Program-made: the position numbers and the translations under genes | Notes under the pieces: model-generated | Told to the model about the DNA's origin: nothing | Databases searched by the model: none | What the model saw: the letters and a program-made list of their open reading frames with translations, nothing else | Shown: one piece after another, positions 84 through 63,462 of the stretch | Position numbering within the stretch: the stretch's first letter is position 1 | Layout of the letters: every line of letters starts with the position of its first letter | Source of the DNA: Truepera sp. | Lineage (GTDB): Bacteria; Deinococcota; Deinococci; Deinococcales; Trueperaceae | Reading direction: 5' to 3' | NCBI GenBank assembly: GCA_965218435.1 | Contig: CBDCKW010000009.1 | Span: 3,648,001 to 3,712,000, forward strand | DNA: 64,000 nucleotides

Positions 84-1284
84 ACTGCTGATGTTTCGTT
101 ATAACGGCGAAGAGTTGGTCCCCAAACGTCTGAAACACGACAAGACGACGTTGACAACCGCGCAAGACATTATCGGACTTTTCGACCGGCACCGGGGGCA
201 GCGGCGCGGCGAGTTGGACGAGCAGTTGGGGGTACTCGAGGGTGAAGCCACCGACTACCGCACGAAACGGGGCCTGGCGCATCTTTTACGGAGCGGGTTC
301 AGCACCTTTGAAACCGTGAGCCCCGTAGAGCCGCCCCTCCTCCGTGAACGCGTTTTTTCCCTCGCCGCTGCCGGTTTGCCGAGCCCGCAAGCTGCCAAGG
401 TGACCCTTGAACGCGCCGCTGCCGCCCTCAGCACCGAACTCGGGCGTGAAGTTCACCCGGAAGAGGTCACGCGCGGGCTCTACGCCGACCTTGCTGAAAA
501 CCAGCGCCTCACAGCGTTTGAGCCGCCCGACCCGAAAGCTTTGGTAGACCGCTACAACCTCTCACAAGTACAGGGCGTCTTGTACCGCGCTCAGCGTGTC
601 GTCATCAACGCGCACCGCAACGACCCCGGCGAATACAAGCTTTTGTTTCGTTACCTCAAACTGTTCGGCCTGATGAGCTATATCGAAGGGGACGCTGACC
701 ACGGCTTTACTATCACCGTAGACGGCCCTGCGAGTCTTTTTCAGGGGAGCCCGCGTTACGGTTTGGCGCTCGCTAAGCTGTTACCCGCGCTGTTACACGT
801 GACGCGCTGGAGTTTGGAAGCCGACCTCGTCCCCCGCACTTTATATGACGGCACCACGACGCCCGCGCGGTTTACCCTCGAGTCGGATTGCGGTTTGGTC
901 TCGCACTATCCACCCGGTAAAACGTATGACAGCATGCTCGAGGCGTCGTTTGCCGAGCGTTGGAGCAAGGCAAAAACTGAGTGGCAGCTCGAGCGCGAAG
1001 TAGACTTGGTGAGCATCCCCGGCTCCGTGATGGTTCCCGATTTTCGCCTGGTTCACCCCGACGGGCGCTCGTTTCTCTTGGAGATTGTCGGCTACTGGCG
1101 ACCCGAATACCTCAAAAAGAAGTTTGCCCAAGTCAAAAAAGCTCTGCGCGATGACCTCATTTTGGCGGTCTCCGAAAAGCTCAATCTGGGCGGCGCAGGG
1201 ATTAAGCTAGACGACATCCCGGCGAAAATCGTCTGGTTTAAGGACAAGCTCATTCCCAAGTCGGTGTTGTCGCTGCTGCCTTAG
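70..1284 (+). CDS. DUF790 family protein (Bax1-like PD-(D/E)XK nuclease)
   Basis: 404 aa; DGPASLF..YG and DSMLE..FA motifs; C-terminal PDF...LEIVGYWRPEYL nuclease motif. Confidence 0.85.
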   Translation: MLPTELLMFRYNGEELVPKRLKHDKTTLTTAQDIIGLFDRHRGQRRGELDEQLGVLEGEATDYRTKRGLAHLLRSGFSTFETVSPVEPPLLRERVFSLAAAGLPSPQAAKVTLERAAAALSTELGREVHPEEVTRGLYADLAENQRLTAFEPPDPKALVDRYNLSQVQGVLYRAQRVVINAHRNDPGEYKLLFRYLKLFGLMSYIEGDADHGFTITVDGPASLFQGSPRYGLALAKLLPALLHVTRWSLEADLVPRTLYDGTTTPARFTLESDCGLVSHYPPGKTYDSMLEASFAERWSKAKTEWQLEREVDLVSIPGSVMVPDFRLVHPDGRSFLLEIVGYWRPEYLKKKFAQVKKALRDDLILAVSEKLNLGGAGIKLDDIPAKIVWFKDKLIPKSVLSLLP

Positions 1285-1292
1285 CAGCAGCT

Positions 1293-3134
1293 TTGGTAAG
1301 CTATTGGGAAACAACTACCCGTGCCCTTCGTATCATGACAATCATGTCTCCATTTACCTACTCTGATTCAGAGCTCCAAGAACTAAAAATAGATGTCGGA
1401 ATACCTATTGAAGAAATTGGAGACTTCATCATCCACTTTGGACGCGCAGGTGAAAAGTGGAGAATTTCAAATGATCTGAAAAGGTCCCATCTCTACGACG
1501 TTCTAGCCGGACTTGTTTTTATGTCTTGGTTTCCTGACCAAACGGAGGTTTTTGGGCCTCTAGAGAAACTAAAAGAATACAGATTCCTCAATAATGGTTT
1601 GTTAGAGGATTCTGATGCGGATATGTTGAGGGGAGTCTTGAGGCATGTCAGCAGTCCTGCACTAAAGGCTCGAATCGGTGATGCTTTATGGAGTTTCAAG
1701 AAAGACCATAAGAGTGCTAGGACTGCGATTTCGTCGTATATGGACTATGCCAAATTGACCGATGACCTTGAACACTGGCGTGAACCAGTTCATGCATTAA
1801 CACGAGCCCTCGCTGTGGCAAAAAGTCTGGGTAGAAATGCGCCAGAAATCAATGAAGTCTTAGAGTACATCCAAGAGTGCGTAATTAGAGCGAATGCTCA
1901 AGACCCCTACTTTTATTCCAACCGACTTATCCGGCTGCTAACTGACAACGAGTATGGCGACTTGAATCAGCTTGGCAGTTTTGCCGAAAGGCTTGCGGTC
2001 AACGAAGAAAACAAGCTTGAACCAGCATGTGAACGAGCACAGCAACATTGGCAGTTGGCTTCGGACTGCTATCGCAACCTTGGGGATAAAGATAGAGAGC
2101 GTCAAGCAATAATCAACAGTGCAGAGACATGGGTAAAGGTGGCAGAGGTTGAGCTTCAACACCCTACACTAGCTCGTTTTCAAATCTCGGCTAAGTATGA
2201 GAGAGCAATCCACATTCTTCGAACTCTTCCAGATACTCAAGGTCGTGTAAACGAATTACGCCAAAAACTCCTCGAGGTACAGAGTGAGGCGAGAAAACAG
2301 ATGATCCCCTCAACGATTTCTCTCGAAAACGATCCTGAAGTTTTGAGACTTAGAGAAATGTCTATTAAAGCGGTAGATGAAGGAAACTTTTTTCACGCTC
2401 TTATTGCTCTTGCAAAACTGCATTTCTCTTCATCTCATCAAGATATGCTTGAGCAAGCAAAAGTGGCTCGAGAAAAATACTTGCTTCAAAGGTTATTCCC
2501 TACAAAGGTAGTTGATGCCTTTGGGCGAACTGTTGCTAATCCGCCACAAACTGAAGACGAGCAGCTCTTAGCAGACGTATTTCAGAATCAAAATCTGCTT
2601 CGCCAAAGTATTGTTGGGCTATCCATCGAACCTGCACGACAGGAAGTTGTACATGCCCATGTGTTCAGCATGAACGACTTGGCAATAATTCTTGACGGCA
2701 ATCCACTTATTCCATACGGGCATGAGTACTCAGTTGCAAAGGGCCTATTTGCTGGCTTGCAAGGTGATTTCTTCACGTCTTCACATATGTTAGTCCCACA
2801 ACTAGAAGCCACCTGTAGGCATTTACTTACAGTTCAAGGTGTATTCTCTTCAAAATACTCAAAAGATGGCGTTCAAGACGAAATAAGCCTCAACCGTATG
2901 ATTGAAGAGGAGCAGTATTCTTCGGCAATCTCAGCAGTTCTCGGCCAAGATACAGTGTATGACCTTCGTGGTCTTTTAGTTGATAGATTCGGAGCTAGTT
3001 TCAGGAACAATTTAGCGCACGGTCTTTTGCTTGATTATCAGTTGCAAAGTGCTGACAGTATTTATCTATGGCACATTTCGCTCAACATCTATAGTCGTCC
3101 ACTTATCTCATCAATAGGCAAGAAGAGTAATTAA
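1293..3134 (+). CDS. DUF4209-domain protein (helical N-terminus, C-terminal HEPN-like RxxxxH motif); start may be ATG 1335 or 1344
   Basis: 613 aa, AT-richer than neighbours; C-terminal PQLEATCR...RNNLAHGLL. Confidence 0.7.
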   Translation: MVSYWETTTRALRIMTIMSPFTYSDSELQELKIDVGIPIEEIGDFIIHFGRAGEKWRISNDLKRSHLYDVLAGLVFMSWFPDQTEVFGPLEKLKEYRFLNNGLLEDSDADMLRGVLRHVSSPALKARIGDALWSFKKDHKSARTAISSYMDYAKLTDDLEHWREPVHALTRALAVAKSLGRNAPEINEVLEYIQECVIRANAQDPYFYSNRLIRLLTDNEYGDLNQLGSFAERLAVNEENKLEPACERAQQHWQLASDCYRNLGDKDRERQAIINSAETWVKVAEVELQHPTLARFQISAKYERAIHILRTLPDTQGRVNELRQKLLEVQSEARKQMIPSTISLENDPEVLRLREMSIKAVDEGNFFHALIALAKLHFSSSHQDMLEQAKVAREKYLLQRLFPTKVVDAFGRTVANPPQTEDEQLLADVFQNQNLLRQSIVGLSIEPARQEVVHAHVFSMNDLAIILDGNPLIPYGHEYSVAKGLFAGLQGDFFTSSHMLVPQLEATCRHLLTVQGVFSSKYSKDGVQDEISLNRMIEEEQYSSAISAVLGQDTVYDLRGLLVDRFGASFRNNLAHGLLLDYQLQSADSIYLWHISLNIYSRPLISSIGKKSN

Positions 3135-3201
3135 AAAATCTAAGCCACACCTCGAGCTTGGTTGTCGGCTCGAGCCTTGAACACTCTCTGATCGTGACTA
3201 C

Positions 3202-5034
3202 TTAATCGGCTGCGACCGCTTCCCCGCGAAACTGCTTCCGGTACAGCTCGGCGTAGACGCCGCCCTGCGCTAACAATTGCTCGTGCGTCCCCTGCTGGAC
3301 GGTGCGCCCCTCATCTAAGACGATAATCTGGTCGGCGTTACGCACCGTAGACAAGCGGTGCGCGATGACAAACGTGGTGCGACCCGCCATCAGCACGTCT
3401 AAAGCTTCTTGGACTAAAGATTCGGATTCGGAATCGAGCGAACTCGTCGCTTCGTCCAAGATCAAGATGCGGGGGTCTTTGAGAAGCGCCCGCGCAATCG
3501 CCACGCGTTGGCGCTGCCCACCGGAGAGCTTAATCCCGCGCTCGCCGACGACCGTTTCGTAACCTTCTGGAAACGCACGGATAAAGTCGTGGGCGTTGGC
3601 AGCTGCGGCTGCGGCTTCGACCTCTTCGTCGGCGGCGTCCGGCCGACCGTAACGGATGTTGTCGCGTACCGTCCCGGAAAAAAGCTGCGTCTCTTGCGGG
3701 ACGATGCCGATGTGGGCGCGGAGCTCGAGCTCACTCAGCTCACGCAAATCTACCCCGTCGAGCGTGATGCGTCCGGCGGTCGGATCGTAAAAGCGGGGGA
3801 TGAGTGTCACCAACGTGCTTTTGCCCGCCCCCGAAGGGCCGACGAGCGCGGTGACTTCGCCGGGTTGCGCCGTGAGCGCGATGTGGTGAAGGACAGCCCG
3901 TTTGCCGCGTTTGTCAAGCTCTTCACCGTCTTGAACGCTGCCGTAACGAAACGACACGTCTTCAAACTTGACCAGACCGCGTACCGACGTGAGAGCTTGG
4001 GGCGACGCTGGCGTGGGCAGGTCACTCTTTTCTTCTAACAGTTCAAAAATACGTTTGGACGCGCCCAAAGCCTCTTGAAACTGGCTGTAAAGCCCGGTGA
4101 GCGCACCTACTGCGCCCGCGACGAAGAGGGTATAGAGCAGAAACTGTACCAGCTGGCCGGGAGTCAACCCGCCGCTGTTGACCAGCCGTCCGCCCACGTA
4201 GAGCACCACGCTGATGGCGCTGAACATGGCAAAGATAATCCCTGAGAAAAACGCAGCCCGAAACGCCGCTCGTCTAAGAGCGATGTGGTACGACGCGTTG
4301 ATCAAGCTGCCGTAACGGGCGGCCTCGAGCCCCTCCGCCGTAAACGATTTGACCACCCGTACGCCGACAATCGCCTCTTCTGCGCTCGCGTTCGCCTCGG
4401 CGATGCGGTCTTGAAACTCGGTGCTGATAGCCCGCAGTTTACGCCCGAACGTACGCGCCCCGAACATCACGACCGGCACGACCAAGAGCATCAGTAAGGT
4501 CAGCTGCCAGTTGGTAACAAACAGTAAAACAATACTGCCGACCAAAAGCGCCCCCTGATTGACGAGCTGTGCCAGCGCCTGTGAGACCGCACCCTGCACC
4601 ACCGACGCGTCCGAGGTCAGGCGTGAAGTGATCTCTCCGGTACGGCGCGTTTCAAAAAAGCGAATCGGCAACGCCATCAGGTGGGCGTACAAATCTCGGC
4701 GGAGGTCGGCAACGACGCCTTCGCCAACTTGCGCGATCATATAGGTCCGTAAAAAGTTAAACGCGGCCTGGACTAAAAAGATACCCAGCAAAATGGCGAC
4801 AATTCGGTTGAGGTTTAAGCTGGCCCCTTGTCCCGAAGCGATAAAGGTATCGAAAAAACGCCGGACGACCTGCGGCACCGCGAGAGACAGGAGGCTTGCG
4901 ACTCCTACAGCCACCATCCCGACCACAAGCTGCACACGGTAGGGGCGAGTATAAGCGAACAGTTTACGGAGCTGGCCAAAGTCTGAAAATGATCCTTTGG
5001 TTTCGCCTTTGGAGGAGATAGTACGGCGCATCAT
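3202..5034 (-). CDS. ABC exporter, fused TMD-NBD (MsbA-like)
   Basis: Walker A GPSGAGKST, LSGGQRQR, ILDEATSSLD; about 6 TM helices; ATG 5034 preceded by TAAACT. Confidence 0.9.
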   Translation of the reverse strand: MMRRTISSKGETKGSFSDFGQLRKLFAYTRPYRVQLVVGMVAVGVASLLSLAVPQVVRRFFDTFIASGQGASLNLNRIVAILLGIFLVQAAFNFLRTYMIAQVGEGVVADLRRDLYAHLMALPIRFFETRRTGEITSRLTSDASVVQGAVSQALAQLVNQGALLVGSIVLLFVTNWQLTLLMLLVVPVVMFGARTFGRKLRAISTEFQDRIAEANASAEEAIVGVRVVKSFTAEGLEAARYGSLINASYHIALRRAAFRAAFFSGIIFAMFSAISVVLYVGGRLVNSGGLTPGQLVQFLLYTLFVAGAVGALTGLYSQFQEALGASKRIFELLEEKSDLPTPASPQALTSVRGLVKFEDVSFRYGSVQDGEELDKRGKRAVLHHIALTAQPGEVTALVGPSGAGKSTLVTLIPRFYDPTAGRITLDGVDLRELSELELRAHIGIVPQETQLFSGTVRDNIRYGRPDAADEEVEAAAAAANAHDFIRAFPEGYETVVGERGIKLSGGQRQRVAIARALLKDPRILILDEATSSLDSESESLVQEALDVLMAGRTTFVIAHRLSTVRNADQIIVLDEGRTVQQGTHEQLLAQGGVYAELYRKQFRGEAVAAD

Positions 5035-5144
5035 CGCCCCTAAGTTTACGCCCCTGCGCAAGCGGCTTACGTTGCGGCGGTGCATACCTAAGCTGGCTAA
5101 ACCCAACGTTCAAGCTCATCTTGGTGCAATTGCCCTAACACAAC

Positions 5145-5173
5145 AAAAAAAGAGCGGAGCCGTGCTCCGCCCT
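5145..5173 (-). terminator. Intrinsic terminator after sugar ABC operon
   Basis: GCGGAGC-cgt-GCTCCGC stem with adjacent A-run (U-tract on minus strand). Confidence 0.75.
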
Positions 5174-5195
5174 AAAAGCGTACTGAGAATGTCGC

Positions 5196-6041
5196 TTAGC
5201 CTTTGACCGCCCCGGCCGTAAGGCCGTCAACGATACGAGCCTGAAAGATAAGGACGAGAATCACCAGCGGAATCGAGACGAGCACCGACGCCGCCATAAT
5301 TTCGCCGAACGGTTCTTGCCGCGCAATTCGCCCTGACAGCTGAGCAATGGCGACCGGCACCGTTTGCGACGGTTTGTCAAACGCCGTAAAGGTTAACGCA
5401 AACAGATATTCGTTCCACGCACCGATAAAAGCCAGCAACCCGGTGGTGACGAGTGCGGGCGCGGTCAGCGGCAATAGCACCCGCCAAAACGTCTGCATCA
5501 TGTTAGCCCCGTCAACCTGCGCGGCTTGGAGAAGCGAGTCGGGTAACGTGCGGAAAAAAGCTGTCAAAACCCATACCGTAAAGGGTAAAGAAAAGAGCAG
5601 ATAGGTCAGGATCAGACTCAGCGTCGTCGGCAGGTGGAGAAAGCGGATAACCGCGTAAAGACCTGAAAGAATCGCAATCTGCGGAAACATAGTCATCGAT
5701 AAGATAACGTAGAGCGAAATGTCTTTACCGCGAAAGCGCAGTTTGCCGAGCGCATAAGCGGCGAACGAACCTACGAGGAGCGCCAGCAAGGTAGTCATAC
5801 CGGCAACAATGACGCTGTTAAGTAAACCACGTAAAAAAGCTGGATTACCGAGTACGGCCTGAAAGTTGATCAGTGTGGGGTTGGTCGGCCACAGTGTCGC
5901 TGGGGTTTGAAAAAGCTCCCGCTCAGACTTGAGAGCAGAAACAACTGCCCAGTAAAACGGAAACATTAGATAGATAAAGATAACGACGACGAAAATCCAG
6001 AAGAAAATTCGGCCCCATGGCGACTTTTTAGTTGCGGTCAT
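5196..6041 (-). CDS. Carbohydrate ABC transporter permease (MalG/SugB-like)
   Basis: EAA-loop variant QAAQVDGAN; WNEYLFAL; 6 TM. Confidence 0.9.
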   Translation of the reverse strand: MTATKKSPWGRIFFWIFVVVIFIYLMFPFYWAVVSALKSERELFQTPATLWPTNPTLINFQAVLGNPAFLRGLLNSVIVAGMTTLLALLVGSFAAYALGKLRFRGKDISLYVILSMTMFPQIAILSGLYAVIRFLHLPTTLSLILTYLLFSLPFTVWVLTAFFRTLPDSLLQAAQVDGANMMQTFWRVLLPLTAPALVTTGLLAFIGAWNEYLFALTFTAFDKPSQTVPVAIAQLSGRIARQEPFGEIMAASVLVSIPLVILVLIFQARIVDGLTAGAVKG

Positions 6042-7132
6042 TCTGTGTCCACCCTTAAAAGACGAATGTATAAAAAGGCGAAGGCGAAGAGAACGATAAA
6101 GATGATTACGCTCGTTGCAGAGGAAAAACCCATCTCTCTAGCACTGATCAGCTGGAAATAAGCAAAGCTCGCCATCGATTCCCGACTTTCGCCGTACATA
6201 ATCTGGAACGCGTCGAAGATACGGAGCGAATCGAGCGTACGAAAGACCAAAGCGACGGCGAGCGTCGGGGTAAGTAGCGGCAGCGTCATCGAGAAAAACT
6301 GTTGTATCTTGCTTGCGCCGTCAATTTCAGCAGCTTCGTAAAGGTCGCTGGGGATGGTGGCAAGTCCGGCTAAGAGCAAGAGCGCCATAAACGGGGTAGT
6401 TTTCCAGACTTCCATAGCGATGATGCTAGGGACCTGATACTTTGGGTCACCGGTCCAGTCAACGAACCCGCTACTCAGGCCAAATCGGTTAAAGAGGGCG
6501 TTAAAAAACCCTTTACGGTCAGGGGCCAACATCCATTCCCAGATACGGGTTGAAACGACGGTGATAATCGCCCACGGCACTAACATTGCGGCGCGCATGA
6601 CGCCGCGGCCAAAAAACTTTGCGGCGAGCACCAGAGCAATCGCCATGCCCAAAAGGGCCTCGAGCGCCACTGCGATGACCGCGACAAAGACGGTATCACC
6701 CACAGCGTGAATAAAGTCGGCGTCTGCGGCCCCTAAAACGTAGCGTTTACCGCCGAGGTTAAACTCGGTGAGTTCACCGTAGCGGCGTGGTGAGCGGGGC
6801 AGAATCCGGAAAGGGTTTTGGTACTGTATCTGACCGTTTTCAACAACTGGCTGACCACTGTCGTCAAGTTCGGGCGGCAGCTCGCGGATGGTAAAACTCA
6901 GCAGGTCGCGGTAGTTCGACCAACCGACAAACTCGGTGGTTGCGCCAGGGTCGGCGAAGCGGGCATTGGTAAAGCTCAGATAAAAAACCTGACCTAGCGG
7001 ATAGATTGCCAGCAAAAATAACATAGCAAAGGTAGGGAGAAGGAGCCAAAGTGCGGTGCGCTCTTCTGAGCGGGCCAGCTCCGAAGTGTGCTGAGGAGTT
7101 TTAGTGACCGTAACAGGATTTGCTTGAGCCAC
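6038..7132 (-). CDS. Carbohydrate ABC transporter permease (MalF/SugA-like)
   Basis: YEAAEIDGAS EAA loop; WKTTPFMALLLLAGL; extended periplasmic loop. Confidence 0.9.
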   Translation of the reverse strand: MAQANPVTVTKTPQHTSELARSEERTALWLLLPTFAMLFLLAIYPLGQVFYLSFTNARFADPGATTEFVGWSNYRDLLSFTIRELPPELDDSGQPVVENGQIQYQNPFRILPRSPRRYGELTEFNLGGKRYVLGAADADFIHAVGDTVFVAVIAVALEALLGMAIALVLAAKFFGRGVMRAAMLVPWAIITVVSTRIWEWMLAPDRKGFFNALFNRFGLSSGFVDWTGDPKYQVPSIIAMEVWKTTPFMALLLLAGLATIPSDLYEAAEIDGASKIQQFFSMTLPLLTPTLAVALVFRTLDSLRIFDAFQIMYGESRESMASFAYFQLISAREMGFSSATSVIIFIVLFAFAFLYIRLLRVDTE

Positions 7133-18170: not shown

Positions 18171-19070
18171 ATGTCAGCTCCGTCCGGTTCCCAAACCGCC
18201 CGCCTCCTCATTTCGTGCCCCGACCGCCCTGGTATCGTCGCGGCGGTGTCACAGTTTTTATACAGCCACGGCGCTAATATCCTGGACGCGCAGCAGCACT
18301 CGGCGGACCCAACCGGCGGCGAGTTTTTGATGCGGATGGTGTTTCACCTAGAAGACCTGAAGGTAGAAAACCGGGACGTGACCCGCACACAGTTCGAGCG
18401 GGCCTTCGCCGAGGTGGTCGCGCGGCCTTTTAGAATGAACTGGCACGTCGCCTACGCCGACGAGCGCAAACGGATAGCGATTTTGGTGTCGAATACCGAC
18501 CACTGTTTGTTAGAGCTTTTATGGCGTAAACAAAGCGGCGAGTTTGAAGTTGACATCCCTTTCGTCGTGTCAAACCATGAAAACTTGTGCGGCGTTACCG
18601 AGTCGTACGGCGTGCCGTTTCACTATCTGCCGGTCGCTAAAGACCTGGACAAAAATAATAAGGCCGAGCAAGAGGCGCAAATTTTAGCGTTGCTAGAATC
18701 CGAACCTGTAGACTTTATCGTCTTAGCCCGCTACATGCAGGTTTTGTCGCCTGAGTTTGTGGCGCGTTACCCAGCCAAAATCATCAATATTCACCACTCG
18801 TTTTTGCCAGCATTCGTGGGCGCGAACCCTTACCAACAGGCGTATCGGCGCGGCGTCAAACTGATCGGCGCAACCGCGCACTACGTCACCGACGACTTAG
18901 ACGAAGGCCCGATTATCGAGCAGGACGTGGCAAGAGTTTCACACCGCGAATCCATCGAAGATTTGGTACGGGTAGGGCGGGGGCTCGAGCGCACCGTCTT
19001 GGCGCGGGCGGTCGCAGCGCAGTTAGACGACCGGGTGCTGTTGGTCGGGAATAAAACGGTGGTGTTTTGA
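18171..19070 (+). CDS. purU: Formyltetrahydrofolate deformylase
   Basis: N-terminal ACT domain [37 protein letters not shown]. Confidence 0.96.
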
Positions 19071-19618
19071 GCTTTAAGATGAGTGCAGACCATGATGAAC
19101 TCTTAGATGTAGTTGGCGCTGATGACAACGTGATCGGCCAGCAACCTCGTTCGGAAGTGTACCGGCGTGGACTGCTCTGCCGCGTCGTTAATGTGTTTCT
19201 CGAGAACACTCAAGGCCAGCTTTGGATTCCCCGACGAACTGCCCACAAAAGGACCTTTCCGCTCTGCCTCGATATGAGTATGGGCGGCCACGTCGAAAGC
19301 GGTGAGAGCTACGAAGAGGCTCTAGCACGCGAACTGTCAGAAGAGTTGAGGCTAGACGTAGAGAAAACTGACTGTGAGCTTTTGGGGTATCTGACACCAT
19401 CTGAAAGCGGCGTTTCGGCGTTTATGAAGGTCTACCGCATCAAGGCGGATGACGCGCCTGCTTATAATAAAGACGATTTTTTAGAAGCTCGGTGGCTCTT
19501 ACCTCACGAGCTGTTACGCCGACTCCGTGACGGTGAACCTGCCAAAGGAGACCTGCTGACCCTAATCGAGCGGTTTTATACGGACAAAAAGCAGTATGGT
19601 AGAGCGAAAAGCTTTTAA
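19067..19618 (+). CDS. NUDIX hydrolase (IDI-like/YfcD type)
   Basis: [22 protein letters not shown]udix box. Confidence 0.88.
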
Positions 19619-19648
19619 GTTAGCTCTCGAGCCTCGAGGAGACCATCA

Positions 19649-20206
19649 ATGACCCAAACCTCTAATCAGACCTCAAGAACTCGCACCGTCACCATCGGTT
19701 CCGAAACCCGCGACTTGCCCATCGTCAGCGTCGGCCCCGTGTCGGTCGCTCTGCTGAACCTTCTGGGTGACGCGCCCCTGACCGAAGCTGCCGCTGCCGA
19801 GCTCGCGGGGCGCTTGCCCGAAGTTGACGTGCTCGTGACGCCCGAAGCCAAAGCTGTCCCGCTCGCCCACGCGCTCGCGGTGCGTACCGGCCTGCCCTAC
19901 GTGGTCGCCCGCAAAACGAAAAAACCCTATATGGTGGGTGCCGTCCGCAAAACCGTGACCTCGATTACCACCGGCAAACCGCAAGACCTCTTTTTAGACG
20001 GGACCGATTTGCCAAAGCTTAGGGGGCACCGGGTCGCCATCATTGACGATGTGGTGAGTACCGGCGGTACCCTCCGCGCCTTGTCCGAACTGCTCACTGA
20101 AGTCGGAGCCGAGGTCGTGGCGACACTTGCGGTACTGACCGAAGGCGACGAACGAGACGACGTTATTTCGCTCGGACATCTGCCGCTGTACGACAATCCG
20201 GTTTAG
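19649..20206 (+). CDS. Type I phosphoribosyltransferase (adenine PRT-like)
   Basis: [17 protein letters not shown]-binding motif; [11 protein letters not shown]. Confidence 0.85.
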
Positions 20207-22425: not shown

Positions 22426-23001
22426 ATGACTGCGCTCAAGCTTTTAGATACCGTCAGCGTTAAAGACTACCTCGAGGGCGAAAAAGACTCGCCGACCAAA
22501 CACGAATATGTCCATGGACGGGTCTTTGCACTGGCTGGAACAAGCGACGTTCATAACCGCATCAGCATCAACTTACTCGTTGCTTTGGACGCGGCGAGTA
22601 CAAAACAAGGCTGTCAACTTTTTGCTGCCGACCTTAAACTAAGTATTTTCGGTGAACGCTACTATTACCCCGATTTAATGGTGACCTGTGAGCCTGAAGC
22701 TGATCCCTATATCAAAGAAAAACCCTGCCTTATCATCGAGATATTATCCCGCTCCACCGCGAACACCGACCGCCGCGAAAAAGTAGACGCTTATCTGAGC
22801 TTGCCCTCGTTGCAGTCTTACGTTCTAATAGATTCTCAGATGAAACGAGTTGAGGCTTTCCTTCGGACACCTGAAGGCTGGCGAGAAGAGAGTTGGCAGG
22901 GAAGCGGTGAGGTGCCGTTCTCATGTTTGGACACGGCGCTCGGCTTTAACGCCGTCTACCGGGGTTTAGAGCTACCGGATTACCTCGAGCCTTTAGGTTA
23001 G
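22426..23001 (+). CDS. Uma2/DUF820 family endonuclease
   Basis: KHEYVHG, YYPDLMV, IEILSRSTANTDRREK. Confidence 0.9.
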   Translation: MTALKLLDTVSVKDYLEGEKDSPTKHEYVHGRVFALAGTSDVHNRISINLLVALDAASTKQGCQLFAADLKLSIFGERYYYPDLMVTCEPEADPYIKEKPCLIIEILSRSTANTDRREKVDAYLSLPSLQSYVLIDSQMKRVEAFLRTPEGWREESWQGSGEVPFSCLDTALGFNAVYRGLELPDYLEPLG

Positions 23002-23092: not shown

Positions 23093-24295
23093 ATGAAAAT
23101 TACGATCCTGACCAACGAGTACCCGCCGCACATCTACGGCGGGGCGGGCGTCCACGTTGAATACTTAACCAAAGAGCTGGTCAAGCTTAACCCCGGTGAG
23201 ATTGACGTGTTGGCGTTTGGTGATCAGGATATTCACAACGGGTCTTTGAGTGTTGAGGGCGTTGAAGCGAAGACGGAACTTGGAGCACAAGACCCGCGTC
23301 ACGCGAAAGTTTTAGATACCTTGCAACGCGACCTCATCATGGCGGGTAAAGCGAAGGGGGGCGATATCGTACATTGCCACACCTGGTACACGCATTTTGC
23401 GGGCTGCTTGGTGCAGCAGCTGCAAGGGGCCAAACTCGTGTTGACGACGCACTCGTTAGAACCGCATCGCCCCTGGAAAGTCGAACAGCTCGGCAGCGCG
23501 TATCAGGTGAGCAGTTGGCTCGAGCGCACCGCCTTCCAAAATGCCGATGGGGTAATTGCGGTTTCGGAGTCTATGAAACGCGACGTGCACGAACTTTACG
23601 ACGTCCCGGAAACGAAAATCTCGGTGATCCCCAACGGCATTGACTTGGACGAATACAAACCGACCTTTGACGCGTCGGTCCTCGAGAAGTACGGCGTTGA
23701 CGCGTCACGACCGTTTGTGCTTTTTGTCGGCCGGATTACCCGGCAAAAAGGGATTTTGCACCTCGTCAACGCGCTGAAATACCTGCCTAAAGATACGCAG
23801 GTGGTGCTCTGTGCAGGTGCGCCCGATACCCCTGAGATCGGTGAGGAGATGAAAGGCCGGGTGCAAGCGGCGCACGACGCCGGGGCCGAGCAGGTGATCT
23901 GGATTGATGAGACAGTCGGGCGTGAAGACCTGATCAAGCTCTACTCGCACGCGGCGCTCTTTGTCTGCCCGTCGGTCTATGAACCGTTTGGGATTATCAA
24001 CTTAGAGGCGATGGCGTGTGAGACGCCGGTGGTGGCTTCAGCGGTCGGGGGCATTCCTGAAATCGTCGTCCCCGGTGAAACGGGGACACTCGTCCCACTC
24101 GAGGCTGGCGACGACTTTGAACCCACAGACCCGGACAAATTTGCACACGACTTAGCTGACGCCATTACCGAACTTTTAGACAATCCGGCAGAGCTAAAAA
24201 GGATGGGCAAGGCGTCCAGAAAACGGGTTGAGGAGAAATTCAGTTGGGGGGCGGTAGCAGAGGAGACGCTGGCGTTTTATCGGTCGCTGCTTTAG
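23093..24295 (+). CDS. glgA: Glycogen synthase / maltose-1-phosphate synthase (GT4, GlgA/GlgM type)
   Basis: EYPPHIYGGAGVHV, HCHTWY, GRITRQKG, YEPFGIINLEAMAC. Confidence 0.9.
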   Translation: MKITILTNEYPPHIYGGAGVHVEYLTKELVKLNPGEIDVLAFGDQDIHNGSLSVEGVEAKTELGAQDPRHAKVLDTLQRDLIMAGKAKGGDIVHCHTWYTHFAGCLVQQLQGAKLVLTTHSLEPHRPWKVEQLGSAYQVSSWLERTAFQNADGVIAVSESMKRDVHELYDVPETKISVIPNGIDLDEYKPTFDASVLEKYGVDASRPFVLFVGRITRQKGILHLVNALKYLPKDTQVVLCAGAPDTPEIGEEMKGRVQAAHDAGAEQVIWIDETVGREDLIKLYSHAALFVCPSVYEPFGIINLEAMACETPVVASAVGGIPEIVVPGETGTLVPLEAGDDFEPTDPDKFAHDLADAITELLDNPAELKRMGKASRKRVEEKFSWGAVAEETLAFYRSLL

Positions 24296-25934
24296 CGGTT
24301 GCTCGAGCTTTGCCCCGGTAATAACGTCTGTCACGGAGCAGCTGGGCTGACTGTCGTAAAACGGTGCAGTCGGCTTGGCTCAGACCTAAGTGGTCTTGCA
24401 AAAGTGCCCGGTCAGCTAAAGTCTGAGCCTCGTCCATTTTTTCCTGCCGTAAAAGTGCGTCCAGCTTGGTTTCAAGCTCTCCAAACTCACCCTCCGGCGT
24501 CGCCATCAGTACCCGCCGCGCTTCGCCGGGCTCGAGCTTGAGCATTCCGCCGCCCAAGGCGTGACCCTCTAACTCAACACTCAAACTTGTCAGTGAAGTC
24601 TGCCAAAACGCTGCTAGAGTCCTCGCCGAAAAGCTCATATCAGGCCGAAAACGGACGACGTGCAGGGTATTGGGTGCAACCGCCTCGGCGTCGTTGGCGA
24701 CAAGCTGCGGTCTCAGGCCACTCATATAGGTGAGCAAAGCGTCCGGTGTATAGACGTGTGGCACGCGGTACCAAGGGGTACGGACGCGGCATTTATACGC
24801 TCCTAAGACGCCTGCGTCTTCGCCTCGTTCCAGATAGCTTTTGAGTTCTGCGCTGAGTTCAGCATCTGTGATATTGAGGAGATAACCTGCGTTTTTGATG
24901 CTTACAGCACCGTTCCAATCAGCTTCGGTAAAGCTCAGGCCCGACAGCGCCGCACTACGAAAGACTGCGCGTTTGAGGTATCTGTCAGCTAATCCTAACT
25001 CGGCAGTTTGCTCCGGCCTCAGGTGAAAAAAACTGTTGGCTCCGGTGACGTAGCCAATCCCAACGTCGGCTAAAGTGCCAAGGCTCGAGACCTGCGGACG
25101 CGCTGACAACTGAGCATATAGTGCTTTAGCTTCAGGCGGCAAAAGCTGTGTGATGAGTTTTTCCTGTCCTTGTCTAAACGGTTCAAGAGGCAACTTAGTG
25201 ACATCTTTAAGAACAACGTCTACAGACTGAGCCAGTGCTTCGCCCTTATCCAAATCGCGCCAGAAAAGGCCCTCAGAGGCTCTGTTTTTGTTTTCAGCCA
25301 ACACCAGCAGCGTATCTTGGCTGAGGTCGGGAAAAAGCCGCTCCTTAAACGTCAGCAAGGTAACGCGCCCAAACGTTTGGGCGAGATAATTCAGAACGGG
25401 TTGCGCGTAAGCGGCGTGTCCCAGCTCTGCTGGAACGACCATACCGAGCCGCCCACCCGGTTTAAGAAACGCTGCACTATGGATGAGGAACGCCGCCCAC
25501 GAACTCGAGAGCTTGGTCAGCGTCACACCCTGCGCTTTAGCTCTCAAAGAGGCAAGTTCACCGCTAAAACTCTGGTAACGGATAAAAGGCGGATTGCCGA
25601 CGACGGCGTCTAATTTAGGCAGGGAAGTAGACTCTAACGCGAAAAAGTCCGCTTGTATCAGATGCTCCGGTGAGACGTTGGTTAGCTCTTGAGAGACTCG
25701 AGCATAAACCTCTTCGTCTAGCTCGACCCCGTAGACCTGCTGTTCACTCGTCCCACTCAGCTTGTCAATACGCGCCGCTGCCGCCTCTAAAAAGACGCCA
25801 CCGCCAAAACTCGGGTCCATCACCTTGTCGTTTGGACTGCGCACCGCCCACCGCACCAAAAACTCGGCGACAACCGTGCCCGTATAAAACGCGCCGAACG
25901 CTTTAGCTCGCCCTAAATCCATTTGCGGCCTCAC
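24240..25934 (-). CDS. N6-adenine DNA methyltransferase, gamma class, apparently orphan
   Basis: Motif X AFYT, motif I DPSFGGGVF, motif IV GNPPF, then C-terminal TRD (GYVTGANSFF, YKCRVRTPWY, GGGMLKLEPGEA). GTG start overlaps the upstream TGA. Confidence 0.9.
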   Translation of the reverse strand: MRPQMDLGRAKAFGAFYTGTVVAEFLVRWAVRSPNDKVMDPSFGGGVFLEAAAARIDKLSGTSEQQVYGVELDEEVYARVSQELTNVSPEHLIQADFFALESTSLPKLDAVVGNPPFIRYQSFSGELASLRAKAQGVTLTKLSSSWAAFLIHSAAFLKPGGRLGMVVPAELGHAAYAQPVLNYLAQTFGRVTLLTFKERLFPDLSQDTLLVLAENKNRASEGLFWRDLDKGEALAQSVDVVLKDVTKLPLEPFRQGQEKLITQLLPPEAKALYAQLSARPQVSSLGTLADVGIGYVTGANSFFHLRPEQTAELGLADRYLKRAVFRSAALSGLSFTEADWNGAVSIKNAGYLLNITDAELSAELKSYLERGEDAGVLGAYKCRVRTPWYRVPHVYTPDALLTYMSGLRPQLVANDAEAVAPNTLHVVRFRPDMSFSARTLAAFWQTSLTSLSVELEGHALGGGMLKLEPGEARRVLMATPEGEFGELETKLDALLRQEKMDEAQTLADRALLQDHLGLSQADCTVLRQSAQLLRDRRYYRGKARATAKAATDKTPASPLLPPPN

Positions 25935-40984: not shown

Positions 40985-41163
40985 CGCTAAACTCCTTTAG
41001 TCGTTGTTCGTCGAGGTTTTTTCGACAAATATATGCTACGTATCAACGTGGTACCTTGTCTTGAATAAAAACGACAGCTACTCTTAGCAGGGATCAGCTG
41101 GTCGGCAACGCTCTCTGTCTAAGCTTTGCTGTCTAGCACGCACATTCTAAAATAATAATGGTA

Positions 41164-41940
41164 TCAACCTTTTGTGCAAATGCTCTTTGTATAGGTTCTT
41201 AAGATTTGTGCAGGCGTTTTACCTGAGAGGTGTTTAAGCGACCGGGTAAGGTGCGGCTGGTCTGCGTAACCCGTTTGGTAGATCACATCAGCGATAGAGA
41301 GACCTGCTTCCAATAAGGTCATAGCCCTGTGACCGCGCTCAATTTGCCGGAGCATGTTAAGACTTAGTCCTGTCGCTTTGGAAAAGCGCCGCTGCACGGT
41401 TCGTAGCGACATTTCTATAGGTTCGTCACGAAGTACCGCTTCGACAACGGAGTCTTTAACCAGTTCGCCCTGCTTGATGAGTCTGCCGATAAAAATATCT
41501 GCGTCCTCAAAACTCGGAATTTCTACAGCTGAACCGCCGAGCCAAAAGCGGGTCTTGCTGGCTTTAGGTAGATCAAGCCCTCCATCTACAAGCCGACCGA
41601 TAGGAAAATGAGGCATAAAGCTACCGTGTTGGAACTGAATACCCCAAAATTCAGCGTCGGGGGGTGTAGGTGCAAAACTTGCTTTAGTTTCGGGGCCGCG
41701 CAAAGTAACAGTGCAGTGACCTTGTATTTTGGTAATAACCAGTTCCCAATGACTGACGGCCTGGGAGATAAAAGAACCCGTTTGGTCACTCTGTGTTTGC
41801 CAAACCGTCCTTACAAACGCAGAATCCGGCGTGTACTGGTCAAAGTCAAAAGGCACTAAGGTTAGTCTAGAGGTTCGCACCCGTAAAGTAAACTTGGGAT
41901 AACTACGTGGCCGTAAACCTACGCCTGGGCGGTTAGCCAT
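41164..41940 (-). CDS. AraC family transcriptional regulator (start probably GTG 41856)
   Basis: SLRTVQRRF..TG, GYADQPHLTRSLK..GKTP. Confidence 0.85.
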   Translation of the reverse strand: MANRPGVGLRPRSYPKFTLRVRTSRLTLVPFDFDQYTPDSAFVRTVWQTQSDQTGSFISQAVSHWELVITKIQGHCTVTLRGPETKASFAPTPPDAEFWGIQFQHGSFMPHFPIGRLVDGGLDLPKASKTRFWLGGSAVEIPSFEDADIFIGRLIKQGELVKDSVVEAVLRDEPIEMSLRTVQRRFSKATGLSLNMLRQIERGHRAMTLLEAGLSIADVIYQTGYADQPHLTRSLKHLSGKTPAQILRTYTKSICTKG

Positions 41941-56720: not shown

Positions 56721-56722
56721 GG

Positions 56723-59983: not shown

Positions 59984-59987
59984 CAAG

Positions 59988-60452
59988 CAGGAATCAGTAG
60001 TCAGCATTCGGTAGTAGGCTCAGCTATCAGGAGTCAAGAGAAAAGTAATTATTGGCAATCGGCGGAAAGGTGGAAATGATAGGACCGGCTAAAGTATTCA
60101 CGGATTTGGTCGTGTGGCAGAAGGCTCACGCCTTTGTGCTGGCTGTTTACCAACACACCGATGGTTTCCCCAGACAGGAAATCTACGGTCTAACTTCGCA
60201 GTTTCGGCGGGCTGCCGTTTCAGTTCCAGCGAACATCGCTGAGGGGTTTAGAAAACGGGGCAAGGCAGATAAAGCGCGTTATTACAACATCGCCCAAGGT
60301 TCGCTCGAGGAGTGCCGCTACTATCTCATTTTGAGTAGAGATTTAGGTTACGGCGACACCGATGACCTTACGCCCCACCTGGTCGAAACCAGCAAGCTAC
60401 TCGACGCTTTTATCAAATCTCTACTGAATTCTGAACGCTGACTACTGACTAC
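59988..60452. repeat. Heptamer inverted-repeat arrays enclosing the four-helix-bundle gene
   Basis: Left CAGGAAT CAGTAGT CAGCATT CGGTAGT..CAGCTAT CAGGAGT; right TCTACTG AATTCTG AACGCTG ACTACTG ACTAC; perfect 12-bp IR 59994-60005 / 60437-60448. Confidence 0.85.
60076..60441 (+). CDS. Four helix bundle protein (23S rRNA IVS-protein / bAvd-like family)
   Basis: DLVVWQKAH, FPRQEIYGLTSQFRRAAVSVPANIAEG, IAQGSLEE; ATG 60076 after AAGGTGG. Confidence 0.93.
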   Translation: MIGPAKVFTDLVVWQKAHAFVLAVYQHTDGFPRQEIYGLTSQFRRAAVSVPANIAEGFRKRGKADKARYYNIAQGSLEECRYYLILSRDLGYGDTDDLTPHLVETSKLLDAFIKSLLNSER

Positions 60453-60479
60453 ACGTAACTCTCGAAAAAGGAGAAACCT

Positions 60480-61178
60480 ATGTCTTTATTTACCGTAAAA
60501 AATCTGACCAAGACCTATCAAATCGGTGAGGTCAAAACGGACGCCTTACGGGGAGTTGACCTCAGGGTTGATAAGGGCGAGTTTACCGCTATCGCCGGGC
60601 CTTCGGGAAGCGGTAAAAGTACGCTGCTGCACCTCATGGGCGGCCTCGACCAACCCACCTCGGGCGAAGTTTATCTGAACGACAAGCGGATTGACCAGCT
60701 CAGTAAACAAGAGAGTGCGGCCTTGAGGCTCGAGCATCTCGGCTTCGTCTTTCAGGCGTATAACCTGATTCCGGTCCTGACAGCTTTGGAAAATGCGGCG
60801 TTTGTTTTAGAGCTCCGGGGTGTAGCTAAGAAAAAGCGTGAAGCTCGAGCCTTAGCGTCTCTTAAAGCTTTGGGGATAGCAGAGTTCGCCGACCGTAAAC
60901 CTAATCAGCTTTCAGGCGGACAGCAGCAGCGTGTCGCCGTGGCAAGAGCCTTCGCCGCCGAACCCGACATCATCTTGGCGGACGAACCTACAGCAAACCT
61001 CGACAGCAAATCGGGCGGTGACCTGATCGAACTGATGAAACGCCTGAACCGTGAGCAGGGCGTGACCTTCGTTTTTTCCACACACGACCCAAGACTTTTG
61101 GAACACGTCACGCGCACGGTTGAGATGGAAGACGGGCGCATTGTCGATACGGACAAGCTCGAGCCCGTCCTCGCCTAA
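60480..61178 (+). CDS. ABC transporter ATP-binding protein (LolD-like)
   Basis: GPSGSGKST, LSGGQQQRVA, ADEPTANLD, STHD. Confidence 0.93.
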   Translation: MSLFTVKNLTKTYQIGEVKTDALRGVDLRVDKGEFTAIAGPSGSGKSTLLHLMGGLDQPTSGEVYLNDKRIDQLSKQESAALRLEHLGFVFQAYNLIPVLTALENAAFVLELRGVAKKKREARALASLKALGIAEFADRKPNQLSGGQQQRVAVARAFAAEPDIILADEPTANLDSKSGGDLIELMKRLNREQGVTFVFSTHDPRLLEHVTRTVEMEDGRIVDTDKLEPVLA

Positions 61179-61257
61179 AAGAATGAGAAGTCAGAATACA
61201 GGAGTCGGTAGTCAGCAGATTCATCCTAACTACTCGACTACTGAGCACTGACAACTA
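61179..61257. repeat. Heptamer-repeat hairpin element, empty copy 2
   Basis: GAGAAGT CAGAATA CAGGAGT CGGTAGT CAGCAG ... ACTACTCG ACTACTG AGCACTG ACAACTA. Confidence 0.75.
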
Positions 61258-61261
61258 AGAC

Positions 61262-62296
61262 ATGAGATTTTTCTTTGCTCTGTTGTTTCTTATCATCTCT
61301 TCTACCTTCGCCCAGCCCTACTACCGGGGTGAGGTAGAGTTTGCGCTGGACTCGAGCCTCAGCACAGCGTTTCCAGCCCAAAACGGCTTGACACTGGCAG
61401 GGCACCTCGAGGCCGGTTACGACTTGGACCTTGACGACTTGGGACTCAGTGACGCTTCTCCAGTTGCGTTTAACCTCGTCCTCGACCCGAGCATACACGT
61501 TAGCCAACTTGTTACGACCGAGCCAGGGCTGACCGAGCTCTACGCCGCGACAACTTACGGCGACGTTGACCTCAGCTTGGGCGTCGAGCGGCTGCCGTTA
61601 GAAACCGCCCGCTTGAGCGTGCCTTACAGCGTTGAAACCGTGGGGGTGCGGGGCGTTCGTCACGGTGTAGCGGGCGTGCGCGGCGTCTTTTATAGCGGCG
61701 ACTGGCGTGTGCGGGGAGCTGTCTTTTATAGAGACACTGAGCGAGATTTTCTCGAGAATGTGACGCCGCTCGTGAGTGTCAGCCGAACGTTTAACAGCTT
61801 TGACTTGGAGGCTCACGCGCTCTACCAAAACGGCCTCGTTGCCGGACTCAGTAGCAGCGGCTTGGTCAGCGACGTGGTGGTTTACGGCGAAGCGTGGCTT
61901 TTGGTGGACGCAGGTTTTAACGACGTTTCTGGGCGGGGCGCGTTGGGGCTGAACGGGAACCTGGCAACCGGAACCTGGACGCTCGAGGCTGCCTACCTAG
62001 CGCCGGGACTAACGAGCCTTAAAGACGATGACGACTTCTCTCCCTCACAACTGTCATCCACAGCCGACCCGCGTCCCGCAGTGCTGGGTCAGGTCACACT
62101 GCCACTCGGCGACGAGGGCGATATGAGCTTGTCGCTAACCGGTAACGCGTTTTTCGACCCGGACGCACTGCGTTCGGGTGTCGGCGCGGGCTATACGCTC
62201 TTTGGAGACAGCGAACTCACACTCGGCGCAGCGGCGCGGTTCGGGCCTGAACCTGTGGTTGCGACGCTCAGCTTGAGCCTAAAAGCGTTTTTCTGA
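61262..62296 (+). CDS. Putative outer-membrane beta-barrel protein
   Basis: Signal peptide, alternating beta-strand pattern, C-terminal LSLKAFF. Confidence 0.65.
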   Translation: MRFFFALLFLIISSTFAQPYYRGEVEFALDSSLSTAFPAQNGLTLAGHLEAGYDLDLDDLGLSDASPVAFNLVLDPSIHVSQLVTTEPGLTELYAATTYGDVDLSLGVERLPLETARLSVPYSVETVGVRGVRHGVAGVRGVFYSGDWRVRGAVFYRDTERDFLENVTPLVSVSRTFNSFDLEAHALYQNGLVAGLSSSGLVSDVVVYGEAWLLVDAGFNDVSGRGALGLNGNLATGTWTLEAAYLAPGLTSLKDDDDFSPSQLSSTADPRPAVLGQVTLPLGDEGDMSLSLTGNAFFDPDALRSGVGAGYTLFGDSELTLGAAARFGPEPVVATLSLSLKAFF

Positions 62297-62424
62297 ATCT
62301 TTAGCTCGAGTCTAAGGTCGGTAGCTACTGCTGATTGGGTCCGCAAAGCCCTGTAAGACGTTATTCTTGCTGTCAACTTGACGCAACCTTTGCAAAATCT
62401 TGATGCAAAAAGCGCATACTTGCA

Positions 62425-63462
62425 TTGGAGGAACTCGTGAGCAAATCAGCATTCCCAGAAAAGCTTACCAAGACGATTTTTGGCAGTACAGGCGTCGTCG
62501 TAGGTTCAGTTTTAGCCGCAGTGGGCGGTTGGTGGCTTTACAGCAGACTCGGTATCAACCATGACGCCGAACTGCCCCCGGCCATTGACGCACCCCGAAC
62601 CAACTTTACGACCAAGGCCGCCGGACGGCTGAATTACTACAAGAACGACAACGACAGTGGCACCCCCCTCGTCCTGCTTCACAGCGTCAACGCGGCGGCG
62701 AGCGCGTTTGAGGTGAAGCCGCTGTTTGACATGTACCGCAACACCCGCCCGGTGTACGCCCTCGAGCTTCCGGGCTACGGGTTTTCAGACCGCGCTGACC
62801 GGGACTACACGCCTGAGCTTTTTGCCGGGGCCTTCGGTGAGTTTTTAGAGACGCAAGTGGGTAAAGCCGCCGACGTGGTGGCGTTGTCGCTCAGCAGTGA
62901 GTTCGTAGCGAGAGCAGCCCTTACTGCCCCGCAGCTGTTCCGTTCCCTGACCCTGATTTCTCCTACCGGTATGAACACCAAACGCGAGGCGAGAGCCTCG
63001 GACAAAGCTGGAAAGGAAGGCGGCAACGAGACGTTTTACGCCGTCTCGTCAAACCCGCTCTGGGCAAGAGCGTTTTATGACCTGATTGCGACGCCTGCCA
63101 GCATCCGCTACTTTTTGCAGAAGAGTTTCGTCGGGCCGGTGCCCCAAGACCTAGCGCGTTACAGCTACCTGACCTCGCATCAACCGGGGGCCGAACACGT
63201 CCCGCTGCGGTTTATCGCCGGCAAGCTCTTTAGCCCGCAAGTCAGAAAGCGGGTTTACGAACAGCTGAACGTACCGACGCTGGTGCTCTTCGATGAAGAC
63301 GGCTTTGTCAGCTTTGAAAAACTGCCTACACTGACCGCTGCCAACCCCAAGGTCAAGGCAGTGAGGCTCGAGCCCTCGAAAGGCTTGCCGCAGTTTGAGA
63401 TGCCGAGCCGCACGGCGCAGGTGCTGGACAGCTTTTGGCGTGAAGTCGGCGTTCACACCTAA
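62425..63462 (+). CDS. Alpha/beta fold hydrolase (start may be GTG 62437)
   Basis: LLHSVNAAAS, ELPGYGFSDR, VVALSLS. Confidence 0.85.
   Translation: MEELVSKSAFPEKLTKTIFGSTGVVVGSVLAAVGGWWLYSRLGINHDAELPPAIDAPRTNFTTKAAGRLNYYKNDNDSGTPLVLLHSVNAAASAFEVKPLFDMYRNTRPVYALELPGYGFSDRADRDYTPELFAGAFGEFLETQVGKAADVVALSLSSEFVARAALTAPQLFRSLTLISPTGMNTKREARASDKAGKEGGNETFYAVSSNPLWARAFYDLIATPASIRYFLQKSFVGPVPQDLARYSYLTSHQPGAEHVPLRFIAGKLFSPQVRKRVYEQLNVPTLVLFDEDGFVSFEKLPTLTAANPKVKAVRLEPSKGLPQFEMPSRTAQVLDSFWREVGVHT

Follow-up and report, generated by a model that had tools for sequence, protein, structure and literature searches.

Highly iterated palindromes (HIPs) mark the genomes of cyanobacteria. HIP1 (GCGATCGC) and the alternate HIPs are short GC-rich palindromes, found far above expectation in genes and spacers alike, and their excess does not stem from codon use. 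They are shared within clades, are kept between related genomes more than control words, and have an octamer form with deviations at the first and last letters; methylases of the word are present in some word-rich genomes. We know of no agreed function for HIP1, thirty years after its description. DNA uptake sequences and uptake signal sequences (DUS/USS) are non-palindromic words of 9–12 nt, whose one-off variants are enriched and which often form inverted pairs in terminators. The Dcm/Vsr very-short-patch repair of E. coli raises CCWGG and lowers CTWGG, and restriction normally depletes its own site. In the parts of two HIP studies on which we draw, HIP1 enrichment is put at 15–300 times and HIP1-like abundance is not seen outside cyanobacteria (Xu, Lawrence and Durand 2018, PMC5861425), and a methylase specific for the HIP word is counted, when present in the genome, as a HIP feature (Elhai 2015, PMC4390886). 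Here the hexamer CTCGAG is described in Truepera sp. (genome G000), a member of the Deinococcota, from a stretch of 64 kb (G000:C9:3648001-3712000; "the window", at its full length) and from the whole assembly, which measures 4,805,864 bp in 9 contigs. CTCGAG truly belongs among the HIPs, and it acts at the DNA level. The word and the phylum are other than those of HIP1, and the traits of the HIPs listed above, from the GC-rich palindrome to the word methylases of some word-rich genomes, recur in it, the keeping of sites between genomes with a reservation given below.

The window (GC 52–58%) contains exactly 124 CTCGAG (235..63372, unstranded), the first at 235 and the last at 63367–63372. An earlier note, made from the letters of the window, had given about 124 copies, some 20 expected and a 6-fold excess; 100 dinucleotide-preserving shuffles of the window yield 20.12 ± 5.29 copies, the largest value being 36. 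The note had also placed the word in all reading frames and in intergenic DNA, and this holds as well: 78 sites read CTC-GAG, 9 and 18 fall in the other two frames, and 19 lie outside predicted genes. The 4.8-Mb genome (57% GC) carries the word 9,883 times, on average once every 486 bp, or 6.74 times the zero-order expectation, and CTCGAG is the first of all 4,096 hexamers by observed/zero-order ratio. GAGCTC and GTCGAC, the permuted hexamers named by the note for comparison, are both depleted genome-wide (0.76 and 0.21 times composition), as are the other NTCGAN palindromes. A maximal-order Markov model brings the observed/expected ratio (O/E) down to just 1.24, as the component words CTCGA and TCGAG have a 2.74-fold enrichment of their own.

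Flank information is confined to position -1 (G in 50% of the sites) and position +1 (C in 52%), and each is independent of the other. The usual extension is the octamer GCTCGAGC, which accounts for 28 of the 124 window sites and 2,508 of the 9,883 genome sites; at 21 times expectation, it is the top word among octamers with >200 copies. The decamer GGCTCGAGCC, to which the word had been said to be often extended, is found at 7 of the 124 window sites and 296 of the 9,883 genome sites, and the earlier statement was overdrawn. A hairpin or longer palindrome was ruled out, since neither flank depends on the other and no more than 3% of the sites have the decamer. A test for dispersed repeats of the repetitive extragenic palindrome (REP) or miniature inverted-repeat transposable element (MITE) type found no sequence conserved beyond the core, apart from the -1 G and +1 C. 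CTCGAG is thus a bare 6–8 bp word, and no part of a longer or mobile repeat. Set beside HIP1, CTCGAG shows a lower excess (hexamer 6.7 times, octamer 21 times), and its core is enriched in every flank context; CGATCG is mostly enriched only within HIP1, as stated in the part of Elhai 2015 (PMC4390886) used here. Both close pairs singled out by the note are present in the window sequence. One pair (3151..3174, unstranded) has its sites 18 nt apart, at 3151 and 3169, and reads CCTCGAGC...GGCTCGAGCC, the second site being a full GGCTCGAGCC. The other (19626..19638, unstranded) has its sites 7 nt apart, at 19626 and 19633, in the spacer between the open reading frames (ORFs) 19067-19618 and 19649-20206.

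Codon usage had to be weighed as the source of the excess. The word could be a by-product of codon or dipeptide usage, Leu-Glu being written CTC-GAG, or of the avoidance of related palindromes. CTC is the commonest Leu codon and GAG the commonest Glu codon, many palindromes are strongly avoided, other NTCGAN words included, and 6,442 of the 8,360 genic sites (77%) are in-frame CTC-GAG; the remaining ones read xCT-CGA-Gxx (564) or xxC-TCG-AGx (1,354). Genes were taken from our own ORF-based model, a crude one with starts set at the longest ORF, whose 4,349 ORFs account for 81% of the genome. Synonymous shuffling within genes gives 2,358–2,369 sites against the 8,360 observed; the excess that remains is 3.5 times (z 125–139), and CTCGAG ranks first among 2,080 hexamer classes both by ratio and by z. 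Shuffles that preserve dicodons keep in-frame CTC-GAG by construction, and the in-frame sites were tested through synonymous choice instead. For sites spanning three codons the dicodon expectation was derived from a first-order codon-chain model. Here the earlier note had allowed that the excess might disappear; it persists, the sites being about 2-fold over the model in both frames (564 vs 307 and 1,354 vs 620).

Codon choice changes where the word can be formed. Leu-Glu pairs (n = 12,092) are encoded as CTC-GAG in 53% of cases, against 16% expected from codon usage. CTC makes up 70% of the Leu codons before GAG, just 35–38% before GAC and GAT, and 11% before GAA. Arg codons between ..CT and G.. 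are CGA in 44% of cases, against 5.5–7% elsewhere, and Ser codons between ..C and AG. are TCG in 69%, against 14–24% elsewhere. The dipeptide Leu-Glu itself is found at 1.25 times expectation, Glu-Leu at 1.06 times; this surplus is a modest hint of amino-acid change. The force acts on the DNA word, overriding codon choice, and not on codons or peptides.

Spacers lead to the same conclusion. Density is 2.14 sites per kb in genes and 1.69 per kb elsewhere, where 234 sites are expected. The short spacers (20–300 bp between predicted genes, 260 kb in all) carry 484 CTCGAG, 7.8 times composition, and it is their top hexamer; under Markov-1 and Markov-2 models the excess is 6.8–7.5 times. Convergent spacers hold 2.36 sites per kb, divergent ones 1.99, tandem ones 2.02. 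Because the three classes are alike, promoters, ribosome-binding sites and terminators do not explain the excess. An overlap with the Shine-Dalgarno sequence (CTCGAGG) had been suggested by the site at 19633, which merges into GGAG 11 nt upstream of the ATG at 19649; it was ruled out, convergent spacers being equally rich or richer. Synonymous shuffles, short spacers and out-of-frame sites together refute codon or dipeptide usage as the sole cause, and the chance that usage or palindrome avoidance accounts for the word is close to nil.

Sites are spread at a flat density, with counts near Poisson. On the main chromosome, 20-kb windows contain 42.5 ± 6.9 CTCGAG (Poisson 6.5), with O/E between 4.66 and 10.2, and none of them is a CTCGAG-poor island. 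The coefficient of variation of the spacing between sites is 0.95. Periodicity is absent, the strongest spectral peak reaching 12.5 times the mean where noise over 78,695 frequencies would give about 11.3; the chromosome-organising motif proposed in the note finds no footing in the spacing. HIP1 differs in this respect, its spacing being quasi-periodic in the part of Xu et al. 2018 (PMC5861425) drawn on here. A mild mutual repulsion of sites is seen below about 150 bp (pair ratios 0.80–0.96). When genes are sorted into eight classes by codon typicality, by GC at third codon positions (0.35–0.94) or by length, every class holds about 2 copies per kb. An amelioration gradient was ruled out, compositionally atypical genes being no poorer in the word (O/E over shuffles 3.9 vs 3.2). 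Within genes there is a small excess in the last tenth, and otherwise no preference for promoters, terminators or gene ends. The density behaves like a set point, and looks saturated.

All replicons carry the word. O/E is 7.0 for the chromosome, 5.3 for a 685-kb contig, and 4.0–6.8 for four contigs of 12–53 kb. Two small circular replicons are the richest in the assembly, at 17.5 and 11 times. These, contigs C6 (21,119 bp) and C8 (21,040 bp), are small circles assembled as more than one unit, in which site positions repeat. The C6 unit measures about 13 kb (repeat 12,981 bp) and encodes an integrase, a primase, an AAA_25 protein, a MazF-type toxin and a helix-turn-helix (HTH) protein; the C8 unit, of about 10.5 kb (repeat about 10,471 bp), encodes a Toprim-helicase and a DUF4238 protein (loci L133 and L134 for C6 and C8). 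Both are probably multi-copy.

These features would suit a selected signal, in which a conserved host protein binds or recognises CTCGAG, be it a nuclease or recombination machine that takes the word for a mark of 'self', or a nucleoid protein; selection would then act on overall density and not on single positions. Density within the genome is flat whatever the local composition, and lineages of 53% to 69% GC hold about 1.5–3.4 copies per kb by our own arithmetic. The two small replicons are the richest, as if carriage of the word aided survival in the host, and the short-range repulsion of sites is of the same tenor. Against such a signal stand the lack of periodicity and of any preference for promoters, terminators or gene ends save the last-tenth excess, and the fact that no candidate reader protein was found. 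Nucleases of the Uma2 family (PF05685) were considered as readers and ruled out, as their copy number does not track the word: G021 and G025 have 10–16 copies with 5–19 octamers, G017 and G020 none with 1,296–1,603 octamers. Uma2-family putative nuclease genes number 11 in G000, one of them in the window at 22426-23001 (+), and up to 29 in relatives; among 14 named control genomes they were seen only in Synechococcus, Thermus and Deinococcus.

Turnover was measured against a congener, G005 (400 kb, 222 orthologue pairs), in which CTCGAG has an O/E of 7.0. The orthologues are 83.5% identical in amino acids and 78% in nucleotides, with an identity of 0.54 at four-fold sites. At 267 of 451 sites (59%) CTCGAG stands at the same place in G005; the hexamer median is 30%, and CTCGAG ranks 6th of 1,153. 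ATG occurs in each of the five words that outrank it, and TGG as well in three of them. At shared Leu-Glu positions the word is in both genomes in 210 cases, in one or the other in 53 and 51, and in neither in 153. The probability of the word given the word is 0.80, given its absence 0.25; the odds ratio, 11.9, ranks 12th among 107 dipeptides. The counts fit a two-state process with an equilibrium of 0.56 and a decay of about 0.55 (own arithmetic), and therefore what maintains the word is its high equilibrium frequency, gain being raised and loss lowered, and not positional memory. Conservation in orthologues, which the note had proposed to test, is above the hexamer median, yet its excess is fully covered by the equilibrium frequency; this sets CTCGAG apart from HIP1, and speaks against a selected signal, positional conservation being no higher than equilibrium gives. 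Turnover is fast and has no positional memory.

Near-copies of CTCGAG are depleted. Leu-Asp pairs, which share the CTCGA context, served as control; by this measure CTC-GAA, with 332 copies, falls well below the 1,840–2,300 or so expected (about 0.14–0.18 times). Variants in the third letter are found in genes at about 0.5–0.6 times, and TTR-GAG at about 1.0–1.25 times (own arithmetic). The most drained genic neighbour, CTCGAA/TTCGAG, is one transition away, the change falling on the outermost pair. In spacers, words with a single letter changed are at 0.77 times, with two changed at 0.93–0.95 times, with three or more at 1.0–1.07 times; among the one-off words ATCGAG (0.33) is lower than TTCGAG (0.58). 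Where G005 lacks the word, its partners are one letter off in 15% of cases, against 49% for other hexamers, the lowest value of 408 in-frame dicodons.

The drained neighbours bear on two rivals. A graded binding site is not expected to lose its one-off forms, which tells against a selected signal; this reading, less likely than not, holds second place among those weighed. CTCGAG might otherwise be a DNA uptake signal for natural transformation, built up by biased uptake and recombination in the manner of DUS/USS. Members of the Deinococcota are naturally transformable, one copy per 486 bp is within the range of uptake sequences, and the small mobile replicons are rich in the word. According to the part of a 2024 preprint used here (10.1101/2024.09.10.611283), a cyanobacterium is transformed more efficiently with HIP1, and this was counted in favour. 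Like DUS/USS and Chi, CTCGAG is a short word present genome-wide at about one per kb or denser. DUS/USS and Chi are non-palindromic and orientation-dependent with one-off variants enriched, whereas CTCGAG is palindromic and its neighbours are depleted. Terminators show no concentration either, convergent spacers having 2.36 sites per kb vs 2.0 elsewhere, and an uptake signal has a slim chance of being the explanation.

Flat density, fast turnover without memory, drained near-copies and the richness of the small replicons together indicate a genome-wide force, be it biased correction or selection on density, and not many individually functional sites.

CTCGAG is abundant in much of the phylum. 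The sample comprised 121 good genomes, with GC taken from 20-kb samples and genus names deduced. For the DnaG of the window, the nearest proteins come from metagenome-assembled genomes labelled Deinococcaceae (53–54%) and Truepera (64%, a partial match), which puts G000 in the Deinococcota. All 6 genomes of the genus hold 1,576–2,508 copies of GCTCGAGC, and most of the family (f1) is rich; eight f1 samples have a CTCGAG O/E of 2.9–7.0. Family f5 (46–51% GC) is the densest, at about 25–31 in three samples. Whole-genome counts give 7.2–7.5 in two genomes of genus g20 and 5.0–8.6 in two of family f3. Two genomes of g17, probably Thermus (23 sampled species, about 2.2 Mb), have 2.6–2.9, and three of g15, probably Deinococcus (63 sampled species, 68–72% GC), only 0.1–0.3. 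GC varies also within the genus, being 68.5% in the G001 sample and 57% in G000 and G005; all have about 2 CTCGAG per kb. No report of CTCGAG abundance in Deinococcota was found in the literature, supplements being outside the scope of the search. The word goes unmentioned in the parts of Elhai 2015 (PMC4390886) and Xu 2018 (PMC5861425) at hand, and the part consulted of a paper on 5-methylcytosine at CTCGAG in a Halorubrum (PMC8112702) does not have the abundance of the word in Deinococcota as its subject.

The label HIP1-like given by the note is borne out in its statistical half, CTCGAG being the top codon-aware outlier, present in all frames, in spacers and in relatives; the mechanistic half fares less well. 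A second phylum has its own iterated palindrome, a counterpart of HIP1. Sister lineages ranging from about 30-fold enriched to about 10-fold depleted, with sporadic XhoI-type enzymes in the enriched ones, make a natural comparative system. To it G000 adds a moderate, probably steady-state case with density flat regardless of local composition, small plasmids richer than the chromosome, and a quantitative picture of turnover, in which exchange is fast, positions leave no memory and near-copies are drained, and with which every proposed mechanism has to agree.

CTCGAG is also the word of restriction-modification systems of the XhoI/PaeR7I type (PF04555), and such systems or their remnants are found in G001, G020 and G086. 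In G001, of the same genus (6,713 CTCGAG), a broken XhoI-family endonuclease directly follows an intact 583-aa methylase (Eco57I, N6_Mtase, TaqI_C); the endonuclease gene, in two overlapping pieces, and the methylase span positions 3829-6286 of locus L139 (G001:C1:1090001-1099000). The locus has the look of a restriction system in decay, on its way to becoming a stand-alone methylase. G020 and G086 have an intact XhoI-family endonuclease adjoining a 340-aa N6_N4 methylase. The 583-aa type was found in 6 of the 121 sampled genomes (G001, 3 of 13 in g20, 2 of 2 in g25), plus G009. Homologues of the 340-aa methylase (62–66% identity) reside in 16 of 23 g17 genomes lacking the XhoI endonuclease. 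An XhoI-type endonuclease or a 583-aa gamma methylase is present in 8 of 29 word-rich genomes; none was found in g17 and family f2, in whose genera the word is near neutral or depleted (0 of 91). G000 has no such system, and a depletion such as restriction normally causes is seen in the Deinococcus-like genus, at 0.1–0.3 times.

The window encodes a stand-alone gamma-class N6-adenine DNA methyltransferase of 564 aa (24240..25934, minus strand; Pfam N6_Mtase, Eco57I, M_Eco57I_C), whose gene itself holds 5 CTCGAG. Housekeeping genes surround it (DnaG, a glycosyltransferase, two M50 peptidases, a nucleotidyltransferase with a PolyA_pol domain, CorA), and there is no endonuclease among the adjoining genes. 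It is the only one of the tested methylases conserved genus-wide (5 of 5 other genomes, 61–76% identity), and is found among the same neighbours in G002, G004 and G005, being intact in G005. Homologues are present in 7 of 13 other genera of f1; none was found in 6 f1 genomes, nor in family f4. It is a candidate partner of CTCGAG. Its distribution among relatives ruled it out as a universal driver. Plasmid homologues (35–39% identity) pair with differing endonucleases, a type IIG enzyme in Xanthomonas and small ORFs lacking a Pfam match in Mycobacterium and Methylorubrum. Searches of Protein Data Bank (PDB) sequences and NCBIfam for the methylase target returned generic matches only. G000 also carries several N6 and N4 methylases. 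Remnants of N6_N4 methylases lie at G000:C9:3165773-3168257 and 3103846-3104307; one is interrupted by TAA, the other is 153 aa long. The 153-aa remnant is all that G000 has to match the methylase which accompanies XhoI endonucleases in G020 (35%, over a portion of the query).

The mechanism can be approached from these data. CTCGAG is perhaps a HIP-like word kept by a sequence-specific force, most readily one of biased correction with guidance by methylation. This account, tentative as it is, has a somewhat better claim than any other weighed here. On every replicon, a force reading the DNA word would keep CTCGAG to a density of about 2 per kb. Where mismatches or heteroduplexes arise at near-copies, their resolution would favour the perfect palindrome, and copies already perfect would be shielded from loss. 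Site methylation would probably guide the correction, as in Elhai's ratchet model for HIP1, and the process would saturate at a set density. The correction machinery, the methylation of sites in Truepera sp. G000 and the mechanism of saturation are all steps that we infer. Biased, methylation-guided correction is placed first because of the near-copy pattern and of the clade-level link to CTCGAG enzymes; the selected word is second, and the remainder is left for mechanisms not conceived. Dcm/Vsr repair offers a partial model: the most drained neighbour of CTCGAG is one transition away, as if T:G mismatches were corrected towards the word. The likeness has limits. The effect is far larger than in E. 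coli, transversion neighbours are lowered too, and G000 has neither a Vsr homologue nor a conserved C5 methylase.

Several observations tell against methylation-guided correction. A Vsr (PF03852) search of G000 gave no match, and the same search was positive in 3 control genomes. No XhoI-family endonuclease (PF04555) was detected in G000 by a search that was positive only in genomes of the clade, and in 0 of 14 named controls. The methylases adjoining XhoI endonucleases in relatives have no close homologue in G000, just weak partial matches. The two C5 methylases of G000 were rejected as drivers, being strain-specific and lacking orthologues even in the genus. The homologue of the window methylase is split by a stop in G004, yet a 20-kb sample of G004 has 6.5 times the expected CTCGAG; no homologue was found in the word-rich G009 and G017, nor in families f3 and f5, and since the plasmid homologues have differing partners the methylase target is not readable from them. 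In the three genomes of f5, the densest family, searches returned no XhoI endonuclease and only weak or partial methylase matches. The ratio of 8 in 29 vs 0 in 91 overstates the association, kin not being independent, and holds at clade level only. By our own reasoning, a simple reversible bias alone does not predict that one-off copies are rarer than two-off copies. The dip of one-off words in spacers may come in part from the word inflating the Markov expectation, and the gene model is crude (longest ORFs, 81% coding). The methylation link drawn in the note therefore stands as a suggestion at clade level only; in G000 itself there is no recognisable CTCGAG methylase, and in this too CTCGAG is unlike HIP1.

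A bolder proposal is that CTCGAG marks a phylum-wide system of DNA maintenance or self-recognition, which sets the density on every replicon, works without a classical cognate methylase and is reversed to strict avoidance in the Deinococcus-like genus. We regard this as rather improbable. If true, HIPs would be a general trait of certain recombination-proficient prokaryotes with multi-copy genomes (cyanobacteria, Deinococcota) and not a cyanobacterial oddity, and the cultured word-rich genera would make HIP function testable.

Other words of G000 deviate as well. A stretch of about 100 bp at window 41085-41184, which contains no CTCGAG, has dozens of copies, 73–85% identical, across the G005 chromosome and few in G004, and looks like a small dispersed repeat. 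Several palindromes are nearly absent, as GGCGCC (52 copies, 0.02 times), GGGCCC (49, 0.02) and GGATCC (67, 0.05); AGGCCT (93, 0.06), GCATGC (109, 0.07), CCATGG (122, 0.08) and TTTAAA (58, 0.12) are avoided too. In contrast to the enriched CTCGAG, these words point to long exposure to several restriction systems. TCTAAA/TTTAGA (3.1 times), CTAAAA/TTTTAG (2.8) and CTTAAA/TTTAAG (2.25) exceed the synonymous shuffles, and A/T runs such as AAAAAG reach about 5 times composition in this 57% GC genome. Their excess may be in part a compensation for the near-absent TTTAAA.

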